NCBI GenBank assembly: GCA_040386275.1
Contig: JAZKFU010000002.1
Coordinates: 16,858 to 80,857, forward strand
Origin: Patescibacteria group bacterium
GTDB lineage: Bacteria > Patescibacteriota > Minisyncoccia > Phycocordibacterales > UBA918
Length of the DNA: 64,000 nucleotides
Direction: 5' to 3'
A program made the translations under genes and the position numbers. Position 1 is the first letter of the stretch. Each line of letters opens with the position of its first letter. The notes beneath the pieces are model-generated. The model did no database searches. It saw nothing but the letters and a program-made list of their open reading frames with translations, and was not told the origin of the DNA. Shown one piece after another: positions 15,776-57,981 of the stretch.

Positions 15776-15858
15776 ATAAGTAGTCCAAAGTATAACATTT
15801 TGTATATACCGTCAATTTCTGGTATTCTCTTGCTACAGAAAGTGAAGTGAAGAATGTT

Positions 15859-15945
15859 GGAGAAGTGTCAGAGTGGTCTATCGTGTTTCCTTGCTAAGGA
15901 AATAGGGGTTTGCGCCCCTCGGAGGTTCGAATCCTCTCTTCTCCG
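15859..15945 (+). tRNA. tRNA-Ser, anticodon GCU
   Basis: Acceptor GGAGAAG/CTTCTCC, anticodon loop TTGCTAA, long variable arm, T-arm GGAGG-TTCGAAT-CCTCT, discriminator G, no CCA. Confidence 0.8.
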
Positions 15946-16242
15946 CAAATACCAAAACCCAAACAAAGCCTAAGCTTTGTTTGGGTTTTGTTGTATTTGC
16001 GCGAGAAGAGAGGATTCGAAAAGGTTGCCAGCTATTTTGCAAAAATAGCGACTGTCAATTGAGCGAGCGTTATAAAAATTTATTTTTATAACCGAGTGAA
16101 AGCAGACAGAAAGCTCTGCTTACAACCTATACTGGTCTGTAAGCAGAGCTTTCTTTCACTGCATTCGCAACATAAATAAAAGTAAATTTTTTATTTAGTT
16201 ACTCATTTGTGAAAGTAACAACCGAATCCTCTCTTCTCCGCG
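15946..16242 (+). repeat. tRNA-3'-end composite repeat unit (subfamily 1) downstream of tRNA-Ser(GCU)
   Basis: T1 hairpin AAAACCCAAACAAAGC-CTAA-GCTTTGTTTGGGTTTT (15954-15989). Inverted tRNA 3' copy GCGCGAGAAGAGAGGATTCGAA (15999-16020). Core AAGGTTGCCAGCTATTTTGCAAAAATAGCGACTG plus long hairpin AGAAAGCTCTGCTTACA / TGTAAGCAGAGCTTTCT. Direct copy CCGAATCCTCTCTTCTCCGC (16222-16242). Confidence 0.6.
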
Positions 16243-16293
16243 TTTGAACCACCTCCTGGTGGTTATTTTCTTACGGGGGAATACGCAAGTAAA

Positions 16294-16503
16294 CTACTCG
16301 CTTTCATTTCGAGGTGTATTACTTCCCGGAGTTTTCTTGGGGTTAATTTTCTTAGTTTTCTCTAAAAGGTCTTCTTCAGTAAACAAAATATTTTCAATCG
16401 CAAACGACGAGCGCTGACTGGCGGTTGATCTTGATTTTGAGGATTTTTTATCAAGTGACGGGACGGAAAAGGTCCGCGTAGTTTTTTGGATAATTTTTTT
16501 CAT
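16294..16503 (-). CDS. Hypothetical small basic protein, 69 aa
   Basis: ORF starts 3 nt after the recQ stop codon. Lys/Ser-rich low-complexity sequence. Confidence 0.25.
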   Translation of the reverse strand: MKKIIQKTTRTFSVPSLDKKSSKSRSTASQRSSFAIENILFTEEDLLEKTKKINPKKTPGSNTPRNESE

Positions 16504-16505
16504 AC

Positions 16506-17987
16506 CTATTTAGTATACTCGGAAATTGCATTCATAAACACCTCGCCAAATTGAGTGAGCTTTTTCTCACCGACTCCGTTAATTGCTAAAAAATCAGCAG
16601 GGTTCGTGGGCTGATGATGAGCGAGTTCTCGTAGCGTCTTATCACCAAACACAATATACGCCGGGACACCTAAGCGAGTAGCTTCAAGCGTGCGTACCTG
16701 GCGTAACACTTCAAATAAATCTGTATCGTAGTTAATATCGGGGAGGGCAACCAATGATTTGGGCGCTTTAGCTTTTTTAAGTGTGGCGTGTACGAAGGGT
16801 GTGCCTGGGGTGCAAGTGTCGCAATTGCCACAATTACTCACTGAAAAGTCTTCATTAAAGTATTGAAGTAAAAACTTTCGCCGGCACGCTCTCATAGTGC
16901 CGTACTCAACAGATTGATTTAAGTTATTTTGGACGTGGATTTTTTCATCGGAATCCGCTAACTGTCGAATAAAGAAATCGTGTTTAAATTTATCAGCCGC
17001 CGAGTATAAAAGTACACAACGGGCAGGCAACCCATCACGACCGGCTCGTCCGGTTTCTTGGTAATAGCCTTCAATTGATTTAGGTAAGCTGTGGTGAATC
17101 ACTAATCGTACATCAGGTTTATCAATACCCATTCCAAAGGCAATGGTAGCCACCATAATCTGGATTTCATCACGAATAAATTTTTCCTGATTTTCTCGCC
17201 TTCTATCAGCTCCCAGTCCTGCATGATAGGTTCCGGCTTTATATCCATAGGCGGATAATTTTTCAGCAATTGATTCGGTGTCTTTGCGTGAAAAGCAGTA
17301 AATAATAATACTTTGTTCCGGATGACTGGCGACCAGGGTGGCTATGGTTTTAAAAGAGTCTTTTTTAGGTAATACTTCGTATCGTAGATTCGGACGATTA
17401 AAACTAGACGTGAATATTTTAGGGGTGGGCAAATCAAGTTGCTGCACAATATCAGCCTGCACTTTTTTGGTGGCGGTAGCGGTAAGGGCAATAATCGGAA
17501 TATTCGGAAATTTTGACCGTAAATATTTTAAGTTGCGGTATTCTGGCCTAAAATCATGGCCCCATTCGGAAATACAGTGCGCTTCATCAATCGCAAAGAG
17601 ACAGATAGGGAGCGTGTGTAGCAATGCTTCAAATGATGACATGGCTAACCGCTCCGGGGCAATGTACAGAATTTTAATAATTCCCTGTTTGGTTTTTTCT
17701 ATAACTATATCAATTTCGTCACGTCCCATACTACTGTTGATCATAGCGGCACTAATACCATTGCCCGCAAGCGCGTCCACTTGATCCTTCATGAGGGAAA
17801 TAAGGGGAGAGACAACGACGGTCAGTCCGTCTTGCAAAAGAGCAGGTAATTGAAAACAGAGTGATTTTCCACCTCCGGTTGGCATCAGTACGACACAATC
17901 TTTTTTATCAAGTACGGTTTGAATAATGTCTTGTTGCAAAGGCCTAAAGGTGTCATAACCAAAATATTGTTTAAGAGTAGCGTGCAT
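16506..17987 (-). CDS. recQ: ATP-dependent DNA helicase RecQ
   Basis: 493 aa with 'DEAHCISEWGHDFRPEY', zinc-binding 'CGNCDTC' and C-terminal HRDC-like segment. Confidence 0.85.
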   Translation of the reverse strand: MHATLKQYFGYDTFRPLQQDIIQTVLDKKDCVVLMPTGGGKSLCFQLPALLQDGLTVVVSPLISLMKDQVDALAGNGISAAMINSSMGRDEIDIVIEKTKQGIIKILYIAPERLAMSSFEALLHTLPICLFAIDEAHCISEWGHDFRPEYRNLKYLRSKFPNIPIIALTATATKKVQADIVQQLDLPTPKIFTSSFNRPNLRYEVLPKKDSFKTIATLVASHPEQSIIIYCFSRKDTESIAEKLSAYGYKAGTYHAGLGADRRRENQEKFIRDEIQIMVATIAFGMGIDKPDVRLVIHHSLPKSIEGYYQETGRAGRDGLPARCVLLYSAADKFKHDFFIRQLADSDEKIHVQNNLNQSVEYGTMRACRRKFLLQYFNEDFSVSNCGNCDTCTPGTPFVHATLKKAKAPKSLVALPDINYDTDLFEVLRQVRTLEATRLGVPAYIVFGDKTLRELAHHQPTNPADFLAINGVGEKKLTQFGEVFMNAISEYTK

Positions 17988-18074
17988 AACCAGGTACAGT
18001 ATATACTAAATAGGATATGACACTAGAAATGAAAAAAGCAGTATTTTTAGGGTTACAATGTAATTCAAATATCT

Positions 18075-18575
18075 ATGAATAAAAAAGCAACTCTAGCAGG
18101 GGGATGTTTCTGGGGCTTAGAAGACCTCCTTCGTGACCAAACCGGAGTAATTACCACTGAAGCTGGTTATACCGGAGGAACAAACGATAATCCCACCTAT
18201 CAACATCACCCCGGTCACGCAGAAGCCGTAGAAATTACCTATAACCCCGAGATTATTTCGTATAAGCAACTATTAGATTTCTTCTTCCAAATTCATAATC
18301 CCACCACGCTTAATCAGCAGGGTAATGACCGCGGCACAGCCTACCGCTCAGCTATTTTTTATGGCAATGAGGAAGAAAAAGCGATAGCGCACGAGATGAT
18401 TGGTATTGTAAACGACTCAAAACGCTGGGATGCACCGGTGGTTACCACGCTTGAACCGCTAACCACTTTTTGGCCAGCCGAAGACTATCACCAAGATTAC
18501 CTCATTAAAAATCCCGGAGGTTATACCTGCCACGCCATCTACTTTGATAGTTATTTGAAAACTAAGCCCCTATAG
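18075..18575 (+). CDS. msrA: Peptide-methionine (S)-S-oxide reductase
   Basis: 166 aa with 'GGCFWG' active-site motif. Confidence 0.9.
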   Translation: MNKKATLAGGCFWGLEDLLRDQTGVITTEAGYTGGTNDNPTYQHHPGHAEAVEITYNPEIISYKQLLDFFFQIHNPTTLNQQGNDRGTAYRSAIFYGNEEEKAIAHEMIGIVNDSKRWDAPVVTTLEPLTTFWPAEDYHQDYLIKNPGGYTCHAIYFDSYLKTKPL

Positions 18576-18709
18576 TCTATACTGACGAGCGTCCAGGGAG
18601 GACTTGCCCAGTGGGTAAAACATGAACTGCTTCATGTTTTACCGCGTAGCGAGGCAGACACGAGGCCAATCTCTCTGCAGGGCGACAATTTGAACGAAGT
18701 GAATATACT

Positions 18710-18796
18710 GGAGGATTGGCCGAGTGGCTGAAGGCAGCGGTTTACTAAACCGCCAGAGGGTAAAACTTCTCGTGAGTTCGAATCTCACATCCTCCG
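18710..18796 (+). tRNA. Type-II tRNA, Ser-like, with anticodon loop TTACTAA (apparent anticodon ACU)
   Basis: Acceptor GGAGGAT/ATCCTCC, Ser-like D-arm GCCGAGTGGCTGAAGGC, anticodon stem GCGGT/ACCGC, 18-nt variable arm, T-arm GTGAG-TTCGAAT-CTCAC, discriminator G. Confidence 0.65.
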
Positions 18797-18957
18797 CACA
18801 TACCAAAACCCAAACAAAGCTTAGGCTTTGTTTGGGTTTTGTTGTATGCGCGCGAAGATGTGAGATTCGAAGCCCGATTGAGATATTTTGGAGCGTAGCG
18901 AACATAAATATCCAATTGGGGTACTGATCATGTAAGGTTCGAATCTCACATCCTCCG
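18797..18957 (+). repeat. tRNA-3'-end composite repeat unit SerL-1 (subfamily 2)
   Basis: T1 hairpin 18805-18840, nearly identical to the unit at 15954. Inverted copy GCGCGCGAAGATGTGAGATTCGAA (18848-18871). Core contains GGAGCGTAGCGAA. Direct copy GGTTCGAATCTCACATCCTCCG (18936-18957). Confidence 0.6.
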
Positions 18958-19158
18958 CCCGTATAAAATACCGCCTGTAAGGGCGGTTATTTTATTGGGC
19001 GGAGGATGAGCGAGTGACTAATGTCACTCGCGGTGAGATTCGAAAGACGGAAGCATGTCGCTCTGCGACAGCTGAGTCGGGGTCGAGAGTACTTACTAGA
19101 ATCAGAGCGTAGCGAATGATTATAGTTAGTAACTCGTGACCGAATCTCACATCCTCCG
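18958..19158 (+). repeat. tRNA-3'-end composite repeat unit SerL-2 (subfamily 2), in tandem
   Basis: Hairpin AAAATACCGCC-TGTAA-GGGCGGTTATTTT. Inverted copy GGGCGGAGGATG-[AGCGAGTGACTAATGTCACTCGC]-GGTGAGATTCGAA (18997-19044). Core AGACGGAAGCATGTCGCTCTGCGACAG...GTCGGGGTCGAGA plus GAGCGTAGCGAA. Direct copy CCGAATCTCACATCCTCCG (19140-19158). Confidence 0.6.
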
Positions 19159-19196
19159 CCCGCATAATCATCAATAAATTTGATATAATTAAAAAC

Positions 19197-19523
19197 ATGT
19201 CAATAGAAAAATTAAACCATAGCAGTCAAAATGAAAGTGACTTTGAGCAAAGAATGCAGGTTGAATACATCTCTCATATAATCGATAGTTTGATTAAAAT
19301 TGAAGTTTCAGTAACTGACCTCGAAGACAGGGATCATTTAAAAGATGTTCTGTCACAATCTCGATACGATTATGAGGAGATGCCTGAATCTCATATGGAT
19401 GAAAGTGAATTAGCGAAAGAAAAAGAGGCCTTACATGCGCTTGCTGAATTGGTGGGTAACCCTGAATTATCAAATGACCAAAGGGAAGAACTAATTAAGC
19501 AGAGACTTTCAAGCTGGTTCTAA
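19197..19523 (+). CDS. Hypothetical acidic protein, 108 aa, carried inside the tandem repeat array
   Basis: ORF flanked by direct copies of the tRNA 3' end. Acidic and helical, with no known motif. Confidence 0.45.
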   Translation: MSIEKLNHSSQNESDFEQRMQVEYISHIIDSLIKIEVSVTDLEDRDHLKDVLSQSRYDYEEMPESHMDESELAKEKEALHALAELVGNPELSNDQREELIKQRLSSWF

Positions 19524-19544
19524 CATCGTCCCATAACGCCCGCA

Positions 19545-19770
19545 AATACCAAAACCCAAACAAAGCCTAAGCTTTGTTTGGGTTTTGTTGTATGTGCGCG
19601 AGGATGTGAGATTCGAAAGGCACAGGCATGTTTTTACTCTTCCTAAAGTAAAAACAGCGGGAGAAACAGTGTCTAAACACTGTTTCTCGGGTAGCGAACA
19701 CTTAGTAGAATCTGCACGCAGTGCAAGATTATACTTAGTGATTCGTGAACGAATCTCACATCCGTGTACC
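19545..19770 (+). repeat. tRNA-3'-end composite repeat unit SerL-3 (subfamily 2)
   Basis: Remnant CGCCCGCAAATACC, then T1 hairpin 19551-19586 identical to 15954-15989. Inverted copy GTGCGCGAGGATGTGAGATTCGAA (19594-19617). Core has GGGTAGCGAACACTTAGTAGA...TTAGTGATTCGTGA. Degenerate direct copy ACGAATCTCACATCC (19749-19763). Confidence 0.55.
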
Positions 19771-19830
19771 TCTATGATGCTTATGTTTTATTGACTACAA
19801 TTTTACCAATTAAATACATATATTAAGGTA

Positions 19831-20457
19831 TTAATGCGCCCAGGCCAGTAAACTAACCTCGGTTGTGCTGGGTAGGTGTGGCAACAGTACCTCACGAGCA
19901 GCCATGAGTGTACTGCCCGTTGTGCAGACGTCATCACAGAGAATAATGCGCTCATATTGAGAGAGCAGATGTATATATTTTGGAGTACAGCTAAAAGCCT
20001 GTTCAACATTTTTTTCACGCATGATCCGATTCAAAGATGTCTGGGGTTTTGTGTGTCTACTTCTGGTGAGGATGTGTGCATGAATGGTTGCATTGTAGTT
20101 GGAGGTTTTGATATAGGTAAGTACTCGCGCCACCTGATTAAAACCCCACTCTCGTTCTCGCTTCAGACTGAGTGGAATCGGAATAATAAGAGTTTTTTTC
20201 GTGGGTAAAGTTTTAAGATGGGTCGCAACAAGCACGCCTAATAATTTTGCTGCATAAAAATTATGTTCAAACTTGCACGCGGCTATTGCGGCCTGAATGG
20301 TGGGTATGTGGTAGGAAGATAAACAAGTAATTGAGTGGTGAGTGTGTGGCTGATAAAAATTTTCAAATCGTAATGGAGTAACCTGTCGTAATACACGTTC
20401 ATGAATCGTGGGTGGAAAAATAAAATCAAGAATTATTCGTAACGGGTATAGCATCTC
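19831..20457 (-). CDS. comFC: ComF family protein (phosphoribosyltransferase-like competence protein)
   Basis: PRTase motif 'IILCDDVCTTGSTL'. Start moved to the internal Met (MLYPLRI) at 20457 to avoid a 50-bp overlap with pilM; the ORF is open to 20547. Confidence 0.7.
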   Translation of the reverse strand, partial: EMLYPLRIILDFIFPPTIHERVLRQVTPLRFENFYQPHTHHSITCLSSYHIPTIQAAIAACKFEHNFYAAKLLGVLVATHLKTLPTKKTLIIPIPLSLKREREWGFNQVARVLTYIKTSNYNATIHAHILTRSRHTKPQTSLNRIMREKNVEQAFSCTPKYIHLLSQYERIILCDDVCTTGSTLMAAREVLLPHLPSTTEVSLLAWAH

Positions 20458-36462: not shown

Positions 36463-36473
36463 GAATTAAAACT

Positions 36474-36690
36474 GGGTTCCGGAATCGAGTCACGAATCAC
36501 TAAGTATATTATTTCGCTACGCTCATAATCTACTAAGTGTTCTTGACCACACCTCGCGGTTTTCTTTTCTGGTAAAAAGAAAACATCGCTGCGGTCGTTC
36601 GATTCCGCCGAAAGCAAAGCAGTTTGCTTTCTGAACTCCGCAACAAAAACGTAAAACCTCTGTCAATAAAGACAGAGGTTTTACGTAATG
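36474..36690 (-). repeat. tRNA-3'-end composite repeat unit (subfamily 2) downstream of initiator-like tRNA-Met, minus orientation
   Basis: In tRNA orientation: hairpin AAAACCTCTGTC-TTTATT-GACAGAGGTTTT; inverted copy TTGCGG-[AGTTCAGAAAGCAAACTGCTTTGCTTTC]-GGCGGAATCGAA; core with GAGCGTAGCGAA...TTAGTGATTCGTGA; direct copy CTCGATTCCGGAACCC (plus 36474-36489). Confidence 0.55.
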
Positions 36691-36761
36691 TTGCGGGTTC
36701 CGGAATCGAACCGGAGTCTGGAGGTTATGAGCCTCCCGAGGTACCTCTCCTCTAACCCGCT
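36691..36761 (-). tRNA. tRNA-Met (CAU), initiator-like
   Basis: Anticodon loop CTCATAA, A1:A72 mismatch, A11:U24 in the D-stem, T-arm TCCGG-TTCGATT-CCGGA, no CCA. Confidence 0.7.
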
Positions 36762-37542: not shown

Positions 37543-37694
37543 TTGATAGAGTGCTATATTAGTGGTATTCTGTTGCCACTTTTCTCTAGGTTAATGCTAG
37601 AGAAAATTGTATCCAGGGCGTATCGGTGTAAGCAAAGCTTTCACCGACTGCGTTCGAAGAAAATGTAAGCGAGCTTCCATTTTGCTTCTCACTT

Positions 37695-37768
37695 GTCGGT
37701 GTAGCTCAGCTGGTTAGAGCGTAGCACTCATAACGCTAAGGTCGGAGGTTCGAGCCCCCCCATCGACA
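37695..37768 (+). tRNA. tRNA-Met (CAU), elongator-like
   Basis: Acceptor GTCGGTG/CATCGAC (one GU), anticodon loop CTCATAA, T-loop TTCGAGC. Carries an A31-C39 mismatch and a T-stem mismatch, so it is somewhat degenerate. Confidence 0.6.
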
Positions 37769-37845
37769 CAACGCAGGATATTGCCCTTTTAATTAAAAGT
37801 GTATATACTCTTGCCACTAATACCCTCGGTATTTAGTAAGGAATT

Positions 37846-37919
37846 GCGGGCGTAGCTCAGCTGGTTAGAGCGCTTCCCTGTCACGGAAGAGGCCGTGGGT
37901 TCGAATCCCATCGCTCGCG
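37846..37919 (+). tRNA. tRNA-Asp, anticodon GUC
   Basis: Acceptor GCGGGCG/CGCTCGC, anticodon stem CTTCC/GGAAG, loop CTGTCAC, T-arm GTGGG-TTCGAAT-CCCAT, discriminator G. Confidence 0.8.
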
Positions 37920-38084
37920 CAAATGAAAGAGCCCTTCGGGGCTTTTTCGTTTACGCGAGCGAAAGAAAGCGCCTGCGCGCTTTCTGGTGGGATTCGAAAG
38001 CCGGAGTCATGTCGCCCTGCGACAGACGAGACGGGGTCGCGAAAATTTCTGAAAGAAATTATTTGTGACCGAATCCCATCGCTC
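37920..38084 (+). repeat. tRNA-3'-end composite repeat unit (subfamily 2) downstream of tRNA-Asp
   Basis: Hairpin AAAGAGCCC-TTCG-GGGCTTTTT. Inverted copy CGCGAGCG-[AAAGAAAGCGCCTGCGCGCTTTCTGGT]-GGGATTCGAA (37954-37998). Core AGCCGGAGTCATGTCGCCCTGCGACAGACGAGACGGGGTCGCGA. Direct copy CCGAATCCCATCGCTC (38069-38084). Confidence 0.6.
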
Positions 38085-38126
38085 CCACTCCTTCAAACAT
38101 CATCCCCCATCTGCTACACTACCCCC

Positions 38127-46287: not shown

Positions 46288-46443
46288 TGCCTGATCGTCT
46301 AATGGTAAGCAAAGCTTTCTTGAACGGCACTCAGACAATACATACAAGCAAGCTTTAATGTAAGTCTTCGTTTGTTCAAGTAGGACTCTGGTTTTTGGTA
46401 CCAGCTATTGAGGAAAGAATTCTAAGAATTCGAGTCTCATAGG
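46288..46443 (+). pseudogene. Degraded duplicate of tRNA-Gln interrupted in the D-loop by a 74-nt insertion
   Basis: TGCCTGATCGTCTAATGGTA matches the tRNA-Gln 5' part. After the 46308-46381 insertion, AGGACTCTGGTTTTTGGTACCAGCTATTG continues (anticodon arm intact), but the T-arm and acceptor 3' strand are divergent (GAATTCTAAGAATTCGAGTCTCATAGG). Confidence 0.45.
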
Positions 46444-46456
46444 AAACTAAATTAAT

Positions 46457-46527
46457 TGCCTGATCGTCTAATGGTAGGACTCTGGTTTTTGGTACCAGCT
46501 ATTGGGGTTCGAGTCCCTGTCAGGCAG
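46457..46527 (+). tRNA. tRNA-Gln, anticodon UUG
   Basis: Acceptor TGCCTGA/TCAGGCA, anticodon stem CTGGT/ACCAG, loop TTTTGGT, T-loop TTCGAGT, discriminator G, no CCA. Confidence 0.8.
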
Positions 46528-46763
46528 CGAGTAGAAAAGACATCCCTCGGGATGTTTTTTCGTATCGCTGCCTGACAGGCGCAGCTTTCTGAAAGAAAGC
46601 GTCTGCGCGGACTCGAAAAGGTTGCCAGCTATTTTGAAAAAATAGCGACTGATAATTGAATGAGTGAAATGAAAATTTATTTTCATTTCCGAGTGAATGC
46701 AATCAGGAAGCTTTGCTTACAACCTGTACTGAAGCTGTAAGCTTCGAGTCCCTGTCAGGCAGC
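46528..46763 (+). repeat. tRNA-3'-end composite repeat unit (subfamily 1) downstream of tRNA-Gln
   Basis: Hairpin AAAAGACATCCC-TCGG-GATGTTTTTT. Inverted copy CGCTGCCTGACAGG-[CGCAGCTTTCTGAAAGAAAGCGTCTGCGC]-GGACTCGAA (46566-46617). Core AAGGTTGCCAGCTATTTTGAAAAAATAGCGACTG...GAGTGAA...GCTTACAACCTGTACTGAAGCTGTAAGC shares about 85% with the unit at 16021-16160. Direct copy TTCGAGTCCCTGTCAGGCAGC (46743-46763). Confidence 0.6.
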
Positions 46764-47606: not shown

Positions 47607-48407
47607 ATGGTACCATCAGTTCACATGAATTCCTCAAGTATAACCTTACCTACTACCATTGATGAAGTGATTGCGCATTTAGATGCTATCGTATTAACGT
47701 GTGAAGCTACGGGTTGTCGGATGGGTTATTTCCCCGCAATGTACAATCGGGTCACGAGACAAGTTAAGCAGCGCATCCTCGAAGGGTCTTTTGAAGATAA
47801 CGAACGCATGGAGCGGTTTGATGTTATTTTTGCTAACCGGTACTTAGTCGCGTACTATGCGTACGCCCAAAATAAGCCGTGTTCTGAATCGTGGAAAATA
47901 ACGTTTGAGGCGTCTAAAAAATGGAGCCCAATGGTGATTCAGCATTTGATTGCCAGTATGAATGCACACATTTGTTTAGATCTGGGTATATCAGCGGCAG
48001 AAACCGAAACACACAATTTACTGTCACTAAAAAATGACTTTGATCAGGTTAATGACATATTAGATTCACTGATTGAAGAAGTTGAAGCAGAACTTCGAGA
48101 AATATTTCATCCACTGACAACCTTTGATAAAATAACGGGAAACTCATATTGGCCCATTGCTCATCTGGGCATTATCAAATCTCGTACTGATGCTTGGCAT
48201 GTAGCTGAAGCATACGCCCAACTACAAACAGATAAAGAACGACAAATATTCATTCAGTTGCGTGATCATCACGTGGCGGTGATTGGAAAGAGGATTCTGC
48301 AACCGCCTAAACTGGTACGACTGCTGGTCGGAAAGGTGCGTGATTTTGAGAAAGGTACGGTTGCGGATAAAGTACACATTATGAATCGGAAAATTGTTCG
48401 CAACTAA
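47607..48407 (+). CDS. Hypothetical protein, 266 aa
   Basis: ORF only. Predicted helical with no recognised motif. Confidence 0.5.
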   Translation: MVPSVHMNSSSITLPTTIDEVIAHLDAIVLTCEATGCRMGYFPAMYNRVTRQVKQRILEGSFEDNERMERFDVIFANRYLVAYYAYAQNKPCSESWKITFEASKKWSPMVIQHLIASMNAHICLDLGISAAETETHNLLSLKNDFDQVNDILDSLIEEVEAELREIFHPLTTFDKITGNSYWPIAHLGIIKSRTDAWHVAEAYAQLQTDKERQIFIQLRDHHVAVIGKRILQPPKLVRLLVGKVRDFEKGTVADKVHIMNRKIVRN

Positions 48408-56638: not shown

Positions 56639-56718
56639 ATATTTTTATAATATTCATTATAAAAAAAATAGTAATCCACATTACCCATCGGGTGTGGAGT
56701 GCGGTATACTGTAGGTAT

Positions 56719-57981
56719 ATGAACAGGTATACACAAAGTAATAGTGGCTTTACAGCCAAAGCGGCATTATTAACAGCAGTAATTGCAGGATCTTTATTTT
56801 TTATTAGTACTAGCGCCAGTGCGGCAACGGTTTGTACGTTTGAACGTGATTTGCAAATGGGTGTTGTGGGCGAAGATGTGCGATGTTTGCAACAATATCT
56901 TAATGCCAATGGGTTTGTTATTACTATCACGGGCGGAGGATCACCCGGAAAGGAAACGACTGAGTTTAAAACCTTAACTGAAGCAGCGTTAATTAAATGG
57001 CAACAAGCCAATAAATTGTCTCCGGCAAGTGGATATTTTGGACCTCGATCACAGGCTGTATACGCTACACTGGTAAACGATACTACGGTAACTACGCCAG
57101 TAGCGACTACTACCACTCCTACGACTGGCGGCATTCTTTCACCAGCTGATCTTTTGAAAAAAGTGGAAGAATTAAAAACACAGTTGTCGGGCAGTATTGT
57201 CAGTACTCCAGCTCCAACCACTCCTACCACACCAGCATCTACGGTGAGTTCTGGTGGTGCCAAGCTTCTTAAAGAAATTACAAAGTCACTTCGTGAAGCC
57301 GAAGAAGAAGTGAGTGATAATGATGATGCGGAAGATTACGAAGATGCAATTGATAGTCTCACCGACGCACGTGATAATTTCTACACAGCGGTTCTCGCGT
57401 TTCTTTCTGGTGATGAGGACGAAGCTGAGGATGCTTTAAACGAAGTGGAAGATAGTGTTGAAGACGCTCTTGATGCAGTTGGTGCTTCAAGTGAAGCTAA
57501 TGAAGCCGAAGATTTAATTGATGAAGTTGATGATGCTATTGATGAAGCGGAAGATGAAATAGAAGAAGCAGACGCTGATGGTAAAGCCACCAGTGAAGCC
57601 GAAGACATATTAGATGAAGCGAGTGACGTATTAGATGAAGCTAAAACTGCGTTGGAGGATGAAGACTATGACGATGCGCTTGATCTAGCAGAAGAAGCCG
57701 AAGATTTAGTGAATGATGCCATTGACGCTATTGGATCAAATGGTGGTGATGTTGAAGATGAATTAGATGACGCTCGAAATGAATTAGACGATGTACGAGA
57801 AGACGTGGATGCGGCCGAAGATGATGGCGAAGATATGGAAGATGCACAAGAGTATTTAGATGAGGCGGAAGATTTATTGGATGATGCGGAAGAGGCTCTC
57901 GATAATGATGATGAGGATGAAGCGGAAGAGTTGATTGAGGAGGCTTTGGACCTAATCGCCGACGCTTCAGACGAACTTTAG
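56719..57981 (+). CDS. Secreted peptidoglycan-binding-domain protein with Thr/Pro linker and about 250-aa acidic (D/E/A) repeat tail
   Basis: Signal peptide ...STSASA-ATV. PG_binding_1-like 'LQMGVVGEDVRCLQQYLNANGF'. Long run of '(D/E)-A-E-D' helical repeats. Confidence 0.6.
   Translation: MNRYTQSNSGFTAKAALLTAVIAGSLFFISTSASAATVCTFERDLQMGVVGEDVRCLQQYLNANGFVITITGGGSPGKETTEFKTLTEAALIKWQQANKLSPASGYFGPRSQAVYATLVNDTTVTTPVATTTTPTTGGILSPADLLKKVEELKTQLSGSIVSTPAPTTPTTPASTVSSGGAKLLKEITKSLREAEEEVSDNDDAEDYEDAIDSLTDARDNFYTAVLAFLSGDEDEAEDALNEVEDSVEDALDAVGASSEANEAEDLIDEVDDAIDEAEDEIEEADADGKATSEAEDILDEASDVLDEAKTALEDEDYDDALDLAEEAEDLVNDAIDAIGSNGGDVEDELDDARNELDDVREDVDAAEDDGEDMEDAQEYLDEAEDLLDDAEEALDNDDEDEAEELIEEALDLIADASDEL

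Follow-up and report, generated by a model that had tools for sequence, protein, structure and literature searches.

What is the 297-bp unit that directly follows the tRNA-Ser(GCU) gene in the 64,000-nt stretch analysed here (the window), which is part of contig JAZKFU010000002.1 of a Patescibacteria group bacterium? A sequence-only reading of positions 15946-16242 had described a composite of a terminator-like hairpin, an inverted copy of the tRNA's 3' end, a hairpin-rich core and a direct copy of the same 3' end, and had claimed that this architecture recurs at four other tRNA genes of the window. Our results establish that the unit belongs to a real, widespread repeat family in genomes of the Candidate Phyla Radiation (CPR), apparently a hairpin insertion family undescribed so far. 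Tentatively, with a probability of about 0.45, we regard the units as small, non-coding, non-autonomous mobile DNA elements that are hairpin-directed, matched to their target and inserted as a folded single strand. The window itself is ordinary chromosome of the Kaiserbacteria/Paceibacteria group within the CPR/Patescibacteria, and its genes are housekeeping genes (RecQ, MsrA, PilM, photolyase, CTP synthase, RecG and others). In the following, X denotes the target segment at the end of a tRNA gene, H the terminator-like hairpin, X' the inverted copy and M1 the core module; labels of the type L003 denote fetched related loci or contigs.

The four parts of the type unit (unit A) were located as described, at 15947-16241 on the plus strand. 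The tRNA-Ser(GCU) gene, called like the other tRNA genes of the window with ARAGORN and Rfam, occupies 15859-15946 (+), and its T-loop-to-3'-end segment at 15926-15946 is the copied target X. It is followed by hairpin H1 (15947-15998, +), for which a terminator scan reports a 17-bp stem at 15953-15990 and then a T-rich tail, and by X' (15999-16020, +; GCGCGAGAAGAGAGGATTCGAA), a perfect Watson-Crick complement of the tRNA tail. The terminator-like H1 forms one long palindrome jointly with X and X', and in a DNA fold that includes the tRNA tail X pairs with X' through H. The core (16021-16221, +) contains M1 at 16021-16052, more hairpins and a perfect 17-bp stem of the GTAAGCNNAGCTTTC type with arms at 16108-16124 and 16138-16154; its fold z-score is -14.7. 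The unit ends with the direct (distal) copy of X at 16222-16241 (+; CCGAATCCTCTCTTCTCCGC), beyond which the terminator scan finds a further hairpin at 16247-16269 (+). By analogy with the filled and empty tRNA-Thr alleles described below and with L055, this hairpin is probably the original tRNA-Ser(GCU) terminator, pushed outward by the insertion.

The architecture indeed recurs: seven units were mapped behind five tRNA genes, out of eight credible tRNA genes in the window. Three of them stand behind tRNA-Ser(ACU) (18710-18797). B1 (18798-18959, +) consists of H1, X', a short three-way-junction core and X, B2 (18960-19164, +) of H2, an outer inverted copy, a hairpin, X', a subfamily-2 core and X, and B3, further out in the same array (19538-19763, +), of H1, X', a subfamily-2 core and a truncated X. 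Unit C (36472-36689, -) behind tRNA-Met(CAU) (36690-36761, -) and unit D (37921-38086, +) behind tRNA-Asp (37846-37920) are both composed of H, an outer inverted copy, a GAAAGC hairpin, X', a subfamily-2 core and X, and unit E (46529-46763, +) behind tRNA-Gln (46457-46528) is composed of H, an outer inverted copy, a hairpin, X', an M1 core with extra hairpins, the stem P3 and X. Chance had been ruled out as the source of this recurrence, and rightly so: for the 16-mer CGAATCCTCTCTTCTC of unit A 0.00 occurrences are expected and three were counted (tRNA, inverted, direct), and for a 14-mer of tRNA-Ser(ACU) the figures are 0.01 and six. The signature GTAAGCNNAGCTTTC is present five times in the window, with 0.11 expected. 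The units are not an assembly artefact either, as a Logan contig assembled independently agrees at 100% over 15967-18833, breaking within the repeated hairpins, and units C and D are also present in an NCBI metagenome-assembled genome (MAG) of a 99% strain. Unit D is also unchanged in L002.

A unit thus has the overall layout X - H - (hairpin) - X' - core - X, with no open reading frame (ORF) inside and, according to the terminator scan, with a terminator-like hairpin ahead of every core. X' is the exact Watson-Crick complement of X and not a copy of the 5' strand of the tRNA; where the tRNA has a G-U pair, X' forms a perfect pair instead. With the tRNA tail included, X-H-X' folds into a single hairpin of about 45 bp; with the tail left out, pairing of X' with the distal X closes the core, which is multibranched, in 7/7 window units. 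The inverted copy had been described as split by an inserted GAAAG-rich hairpin in four units. It is split in four (B2, C, D and E), but the hairpin is of the GAAAGC...GCTTTC type in C, D and E only and of another type in B2, and rather than inserted it is better read as a fixed hairpin (GAAAGC...GCTTTC) with a short X' (9-13 nt) directly 3' of it.

Which segment is copied? The earlier statement that it is always the 3' end of the adjacent tRNA describes the usual case, as X mostly runs from the T-loop to the 3' end, but X can also be the end plus trailer, as for tRNA-Asp in L207 and L204 (CGCAGTTAGG / CCTAACTGCG / CAGTTAG), or a tRNA 5' end. The direct repeat begins at G53-C56 and mostly ends between -2 and +6 of the tRNA end. 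Since the copies extend into the gene trailer and CCA is never present, they derive from the gene and not from the mature tRNA. We rejected on these grounds the idea of a mature-tRNA primer or primer-binding site, and the suggestion of a tRNA-templated mobile RNA is left without support for the same reason. Many X' span T-loop and T-stem only, and the distal X is often cut to 7-12 nt without compensation, in the extreme to 7 nt followed by unrelated sequence. In tandem arrays the outermost copy of X is degenerate.

The search of related genomes for further copies that had been proposed took the form of an exact-pattern scan with M1 of one genome per species, which matched 68 stretches, all in MAGs of the CPR (Kaiserbacteria/Paceibacteria) and at most about 15 per MAG. 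Thirty-three M1 copies are tRNA-linked (type T), while 34 have a different 5' hairpin and lie in other repeats (type X). Among the copies within 600 nt of a tRNA gene, 33/34 lie downstream on the tRNA strand, and M1 units occur behind at least 12 tRNA types. In the fetched loci, 32/75 non-redundant tRNAs are accompanied by a direct tail copy no more than 700 nt away, a fraction that, like similar ones, is not a genome-wide estimate as these loci were picked through M1; among the tRNA types with a tail copy are Gln, Arg, Asp, Ser, Leu, Gly, Val, Met, Pro, Thr and Phe. No longer element, with bounding tRNA-tail repeats over 700 nt apart, was found in the fetched loci.

Some relatives of the units are not attached to a tRNA. 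Repeats with an M1-P3 core, often in tandem, lie in tRNA-less surroundings in L017, L023, L043-L045, L049, L057 and L075 (mostly MFMT01, Kaiserbacteria RIFOXYD1_FULL_42_15) and carry a GTGAGAAAG...CTTTCGCAAGA hairpin as well as inverted ends of the GTGGATTGCC type, a motif that is absent from the window. Orphan arrays with the tail of tRNA-Gln or tRNA-Arg and no intact tRNA upstream are found in L069 (7160-7500, JAIELQ010000007), L022 and L064; the array in L069 starts exactly at T54 of the tail. Genes flanked by units are mostly on very short public contigs (about 0.8-3 kb) that end in hairpins, which suggests that the units, as repeats that break short-read assemblies, systematically fragment the assemblies of these organisms.

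Presence/absence polymorphism, proposed as a check on the sequence-only reading, was observed at two tRNA genes. Among near-identical population contigs with identical CTP synthase, the tRNA-Thr(GGU) site is filled in L003 and L007 and empty in L004 and L006. The empty alleles have the tRNA followed by its terminator. The filled alleles contain an additional 190 nt (H, split X' and subfamily-2 core) plus a 26-nt direct repeat, which spans C56 in the T-loop to 7 nt beyond the tRNA, and they retain the old terminator after the distal copy. The tRNA-Met site is filled in L201 and in the window and empty in L206. Units are hence inserted or deleted as discrete blocks. A separate terminator after the distal copy is present in unit A and L055, too. 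H of the filled alleles shows no relation to the old terminator that they retain, from which it follows that the inserted DNA is foreign and does not result purely from local duplication; a local tandem-inversion duplication, by snap-back at the tRNA's own terminator, is thereby ruled out as the sole origin. Movement of modules inside units is seen as well: in the 99% strain, unit C contains an extra type-X module of about 95 nt.

Modules that are shared between units are combined with flanks that follow the local tRNA. H1 is identical at 55/56 positions (98%) between unit A behind tRNA-Ser(GCU) and B3 in the tRNA-Ser(ACU) array, whereas the X' beside it differs at 6/18 positions, each of which matches its own tRNA (p = 6e-4). 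Behind different tRNAs M1-P3 hardly varies. The inverted copy is present throughout and follows even T-loop variants. Hybrid stems occur in L034 and L035. Shared modules with local-tRNA flanks imply that the flanks either travel together as a matched pair or are templated anew on the local target. The same layout is found at 5' ends. Upstream of tRNA-Thr(GGU), modules of about 75 nt stand in tandem, with one in L207, two in L208 and three in L209, and each opens with the first nine bases of the tRNA, to which a AGCAAAGCTTTC hairpin and an approximate inverted copy are added; the tandem 5' modules of one population are mutually diverged and not fresh duplicates. The window holds an analogue of these copy-number-polymorphic modules that had escaped the sequence-only reading, at 37622-37703 (+) on the 5' side of tRNA-Met (37695-37769), with X ATCGGTGTA, hairpin AGCAAAGCTTTC, X' ACCGAC, a body and the tRNA 5' end GTCGGTGTA. 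Close to unit E, a decayed tRNA-Gln copy at 46288-46443 (+) is interrupted by two hairpin insertions, one being a GTAAGCAAAGCTTTC module and the other a GAATTC-TAA-GAATTC hairpin.

Is the fold of the core conserved as well? Covariation across copies, likewise proposed earlier as a check, was tested on 23 type-T units with the model A5'-AAR-P1-CCA-P2-GA-P1'-GUACUG-P3(loop GUA)-A3'. In the resulting three-way junction 96.4% of cells are paired and 14/28 pairs have changed on both sides, whereas one-sided (G-U) changes are almost absent, and the observed pairing values were matched by 0/500 shuffles. P2 and the innermost pairs of P1 were fixed by the search pattern and are uninformative in this test; the outer part of P1, P3 and stem A were free. 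The unpaired junction bases are constant across type-T units. A covariance model built from the type-T alignment matches unit E with 57.9 bits, B1 with 48 bits and part of unit A with 32.7 bits. The two core subfamilies that had been proposed both align as stated, except that the match of B1 places it structurally with subfamily 1, whose fold it shares. Subfamily 2 also forms a three-way junction, which is closed by X':X and has 22/35 covarying pairs. In our reading the cores are a sense-strand folded nucleic acid under constraint; wobble pairs are nearly absent, as would be expected of DNA hairpins or templated copying rather than of a typical RNA. Two known motifs were considered for the junction. 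The hammerhead ribozyme was rejected by eye, as the junction order A-AAR-P1-GUACUG-P3-A does not correspond to that of its core (CUGAUGA/GAAA around three stems), and a kink-turn reading was inconsistent between copies.

How would such an element reach its target? Around shared modules the flanks match the target, orientation is biased, the fold is conserved, and units stack in tandem while the outermost copy decays; a single-strand intermediate, a role for X':X pairing and a trans-acting enzyme are what we infer. An element would consist of a hairpin (H and/or GAAAGC...GCTTTC), X', a folded core with the three-way junction and a terminal X, and would insert beside a short target X at tRNA-gene ends, most often the T-loop-to-3'-end segment. 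Acting as a folded single strand, it may pair X' with X and in this way present or recognise the same duplex as the tRNA-gene end, and a trans-acting enzyme that reads hairpin and junction might then join the element 3' of the chromosomal X. The product, X-H-X'-core-X, would be the layout left by folded-attP integration of the CTXphi type and would formally resemble guide-directed insertion by IS200/IS605. The tRNA would be kept intact and gain a new terminator, repeated insertion would stack units whose outermost X decays, and templated correction across hairpins could keep X' and X matched to the local tRNA.

A precedent is CTXphi, for which two inverted attP sites are described that pair in single-stranded DNA and are both retained in the prophage (PMC4246890). 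Integrative mobile elements of this type that exploit XerCD (IMEX) share with the units the order of target copy, spacer, inverted copy, body and target copy, inverted sites that pair within one strand and so imitate the chromosomal site, and the lack of an element-encoded integrase (PMC4246890). Unlike them, the units target a tRNA-gene end and not dif, have no dif-like XerC/XerD site in the paired arms, measure 110-300 nt, are non-coding and are not phage; moreover, the 'spacer' of a unit is a fully paired terminator hairpin, and one core serves many targets. There is also a formal likeness to IS608, where a short internal segment beside a hairpin pairs with the target. IS200/IS605 elements, palindrome-associated transposable elements (PATEs), and repetitive extragenic palindromes (REP) or bacterial interspersed mosaic elements (BIME) with their REP-associated tyrosine transposases (RAYT) are, like the units, small non-coding hairpin repeats with strand specificity, and resemble them in precise excision and in the lack of long terminal inverted repeats of fixed sequence. 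However, the guide-like X' has 8-22 nt and not 4 nt, and IS200/IS605 use a fixed tetra- or pentanucleotide target without duplicating it, whereas the units repeat a target of 7-26 nt at their far end. A REP is defined as a palindrome of 20-40 bp that carries a GTAG or CGTC tag left unpaired (PMC3733652), and an unpaired tag beside a palindrome may be common to REP/BIME and the units. In the recurrent unit hairpin GTAAGCNNAGCTTTC the tag is GTAA. Association with tRNA ends is not a feature of REPs, to which the units bear a loose likeness only.

A number of observations weigh against insertion of a folded, target-matched single strand. By exact-match length X' and the distal X range from about 8 to 27 nt with neither consistently longer, so that the pairing requirement would be only loosely defined. 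Retargeting requires a co-ordinated change of X' and X, for which we can only invoke hairpin-templated correction. The empty alleles could be precise deletions between direct repeats and not the ancestral state, and no excised or circular form of a unit was seen. An enzyme has not come to light either: no recombinase, transposase or reverse transcriptase lies in or beside the units examined, and the 30 window ORFs are housekeeping or unassigned; two approximate TnpA queries gave no significant tblastn match to a Y1 transposase in 1.55 Mb of fetched loci; and M1 was not found in viral contigs (IMG/VR). The serine recombinases in L003, L005 and L215 are kilobases away and not consistently linked to units. 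Finally, the sense fold is more stable than the antisense fold in 6/7 window units and subfamily 2 has one conserved sense-strand G-U pair, both of which also fit RNA.

Could the cores then be structured RNAs? They would be produced by read-through from the tRNA promoter, the DNA indels being gain and loss of an RNA gene, and the X':X helix might copy the acceptor/T-arm stack, or X' might pair with the 3' half of the tRNA; such an RNA could be excised by tRNA-processing enzymes or modulate tRNA maturation. The earlier suggestion of a co-transcribed structured RNA retains, besides the stabler sense folds and the conserved G-U pair, the same-strand position downstream of tRNAs, covarying stems with conserved unpaired junction nucleotides, very low fold energies and an excess of G-U pairs on the sense strand (22 versus 11 antisense). 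Yet even on the sense strand G-U pairs make up only 3.8% of pairs in the seven window units (antisense 2.0%), about three-fold less than in the window tRNAs (10.3%), and the covariation is almost purely Watson-Crick, with X' a perfect complement even where the tRNA uses G-U. A terminator-like hairpin ahead of every core is hard to reconcile with read-through, and the helix-closing distal X is often reduced and decays without compensation. Where X' covers T-loop and T-stem only, it provides no acceptor mimic. The occurrence of the same layout upstream of tRNAs and of shared modules with local flanks remains unexplained by this account, which finds no family match in Rfam. We consider a structured RNA doubtful.

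As doubtful, to our mind, is a bolder version of the mobile-element explanation, according to which the units form a new class of target-programmed insertion elements. Here X', positioned immediately 3' of the conserved arm of a GCTTTC hairpin, would pair with the target and direct a host-encoded or otherwise trans-acting single-strand recombinase. Specificity would come from 8-22 nt of pairing and would be reset by hairpin-templated copying, tRNA-gene ends would be a preferred safe harbour, and the units might be docking sites for cassettes such as AbiL.

Classical mini-islands, similar to cis-mobilizable elements (CIMEs), are an unlikely source of the units even though much of their anatomy is of this kind. 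A tyrosine integrase encoded elsewhere would cross over in the T-loop, the element would bring a replacement tRNA 3' end and terminator, the distal copy would be the displaced original, and the inverted copy would be incidental, an extended terminator. The proposal of integrase-mobilised mini-elements made from the sequence alone is favoured by filled and empty alleles, tandem accretion with decaying outer copies and retained terminators. Direct repeats from the T-loop to the tRNA end occupy the classical att sublocation of tRNA genes and leave the tRNA intact, as in tRNA-gene islands, integrase-less remnants with att flanks are known from CIMEs, units bracket defence cargo in L072/L076, as islands do, and the orphan array in L069 with its start at T54 suits such a crossover. 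On the other hand, inspection of the units and their surroundings revealed no integrase, no cognate tyrosine or serine integrase was found with them, and a sequence-specific integrase gives no explanation for one core family behind at least 12 tRNAs with tRNA-following flanks. The same rule holds for trailer and 5'-end targets, and distal copies shrink to 7 nt before unrelated sequence begins. The units are also far smaller than islands and differ from them in the conserved folded core and in an inverted copy that is left unexplained; being universal and tracking T-loop variants, this copy is unlikely to be incidental.

Lower still do we rate the possibility that the units are by-products of replication, in which snap-back or template switching extends hairpin stems by copying adjacent sequence, giving first X' and then X, with spread between cells solely by homologous recombination and loss by slippage between repeats. 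This would account for complementarity that is Watson-Crick only, for variable copied lengths and for the fact that X' and X are always the flank of the hairpin, be it at 3' ends, trailers or 5' ends, and the hybrid stems in L034 and L035 suggest recombination. It would not account for an H that is foreign to the locus of the filled alleles, nor for conservation of the three-way fold and junction nucleotides across species, and one would have to assume that modules nevertheless move among at least 12 tRNA loci and between genomes. The divergence of the tandem 5' modules within one population is not what fresh duplication would leave. A retroelement resembling a short interspersed element (SINE), in which a read-through tRNA transcript that includes the unit undergoes reverse transcription at a nicked tRNA gene and leaves target duplications of variable length, would agree with the orientation of tRNA transcription, the variable direct repeats and the presence of reverse transcriptases in CPR genomes, but is very improbable given that no reverse transcriptase was seen, that the gene trailer is copied without CCA or A-tail, that a terminator precedes the core and that some modules lie upstream of the promoter-proximal end of the tRNA.

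Do the units belong to a family already named? At Rfam gathering thresholds only tRNAs were detected in the window. When 15800-19900 and four related loci were scanned by E-value, only spurious hairpin (miRNA-like) matches appeared, and literature searches found no description of these elements, in agreement with the earlier statement that they match no named family. Integron attC arrays are comparable as imperfect palindromes with conserved bulges that can fold in single-stranded DNA, separate short cassettes and occasionally hold a gene. The units differ in that they lack RYYYAAC/GTTRRRY core sites, their palindromes end in a TTCGAA-type T-loop and have arms that copy the neighbouring tRNA, most of the 'cassettes' are non-coding and no IntI was seen. 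With MITEs (miniature inverted-repeat transposable elements) the units have in common that they are short, non-coding, structured and multi-copy, show presence/absence polymorphism and nested insertions, and have an M1 core that in other Kaiserbacteria lies within repeats with fixed GTGGATTGCC inverted ends; in contrast to MITEs, the ends of tRNA-linked units are locus-specific tRNA copies and not fixed inverted repeats, and the direct repeat varies from 7 to more than 26 nt without a fixed duplication length. Retrons, group II introns and other retroelements differ by their reverse transcriptase, for which no ORF is found beside any unit examined. Among the families tested, the combination of a conserved fold with a reversed and a direct copy of its neighbour is that of no named repeat, integrative or RNA family, and we file the units as a variant of non-autonomous hairpin repeats and integrative elements.

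Three further candidates were tried and rejected. Phage origin was dismissed as there was no megablast match to phage records and no M1 in IMG/VR. A guide RNA for a nuclease, as in TnpB/IscB-like homing, was set aside, given that on both copies X' corresponds to the locus in which it lies and that a nuclease gene was not seen. An IS110 bridge RNA is incompatible with X' and X being mutually complementary copies of one segment and not adjacent half-site guides; no DEDD transposase lies within units, and the sole IS110 ORF found interrupts one. The unit concerned is of type T and stands behind tRNA-Thr(CGU); its GTACTGA junction is directly followed by the transposase gene (L215 11779-12822, GCA_041749315.1), which has ATAACCCCACCC / GGGTGGGGTTAT as bounding inverted repeats, and the remainder of the unit is missing. 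Units may be a preferred target of IS110.

Gene cargo, a second feature of the window that had been overlooked, occurs within the tRNA-Ser(ACU) array. The segment 19165-19537 (+), between the distal X of B2 and the hairpin of B3, contains an ORF of 108 aa (19197-19523) with weak matches only and no significant Pfam or PADLOC family; it is flanked by the 8-bp repeat CGCCCGCA, and its right end is GGTTCTAACATCGTCCCATAAC. In JAIPIB010000004 (L072 6989-8000 and L076 1-625, adjacent chunks) a tRNA-Arg unit of about 150 nt stands on both sides of a 1.85-kb cargo with an AbiL-like defence pair, made up of an ATPase resembling AbiLi (387 aa; PADLOC E = 1e-63) and a protein resembling RloB/AbiLii (156 aa). 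Both cargos share the ending ...AACRTCGTCCCATAAC. A right-end motif, RGNTTCYAACRTCGTCCCATAAC, is common to cargos at tRNA 3' ends (window 19516-19537; L076 642-658; L089, L092, L098, L195, L082 and L148). Its spacing fits T-loop (7 nt), T-stem strand (5 nt), acceptor strand (7 nt) and discriminator, and behind it stand a few bases similar to the local tRNA end. Inside the cargos, no inverted partner of the end motif was found. A metagenome scan with the motif yielded mostly chance or coding matches and only about eight relevant loci; in this largely noisy scan the motif stood directly behind tRNA 3' ends in a few other CPR-like contigs.

The tRNA genes and one protein gene of the window deserve some remarks of their own. 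The second tRNA-Ser (18710-18797) has the anticodon loop TTACTAA and hence the anticodon ACT (A34), which is unusual in bacteria; a tRNA-Ser with this anticodon is kept in related MAGs (L070, L055, L029) beside a normal tRNA-Ser(GCU). In relatives, tRNA-Met(CAU) and tRNA-Thr(GGU) are interrupted just behind the anticodon by insertions of about 250-260 nt (L201 1370-2080 -, L206, L207; L002 6961-7530), which look like group I introns; the orthologous tRNA-Met and tRNA-Thr of the window lack them, and ARAGORN misses the interrupted genes. The 'tRNA-His (atg)' that ARAGORN calls at 47823-47903 is almost certainly a false positive, as it has no Rfam support and lies within a DUF5995 ORF (47607-48407). 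An imperfect repeat with a 47-nt register (GAAGCNGAAGA...GATGATGC) at 57288-57958, within the ORF 56692-57981 (PG_binding_1 and DUF4398), encodes an acidic repetitive protein segment.

What do the units mean for the organisms that carry them? In the very small genomes of CPR/Patescibacteria they are a major unannotated part of the non-coding DNA, present at about half of the tRNA genes sampled here. They supply population-level indel markers, and the two three-way junctions are well-supported structured motifs that could join motif libraries. Even on a conservative reading, tRNA-gene ends in this group are stacked insertion platforms able to hold defence genes. If the inverted copy does set the target by pairing, the units would represent a compact, protein-light way of programming DNA insertion, of general interest comparable to that of IS608 guide sequences or bridge RNAs.

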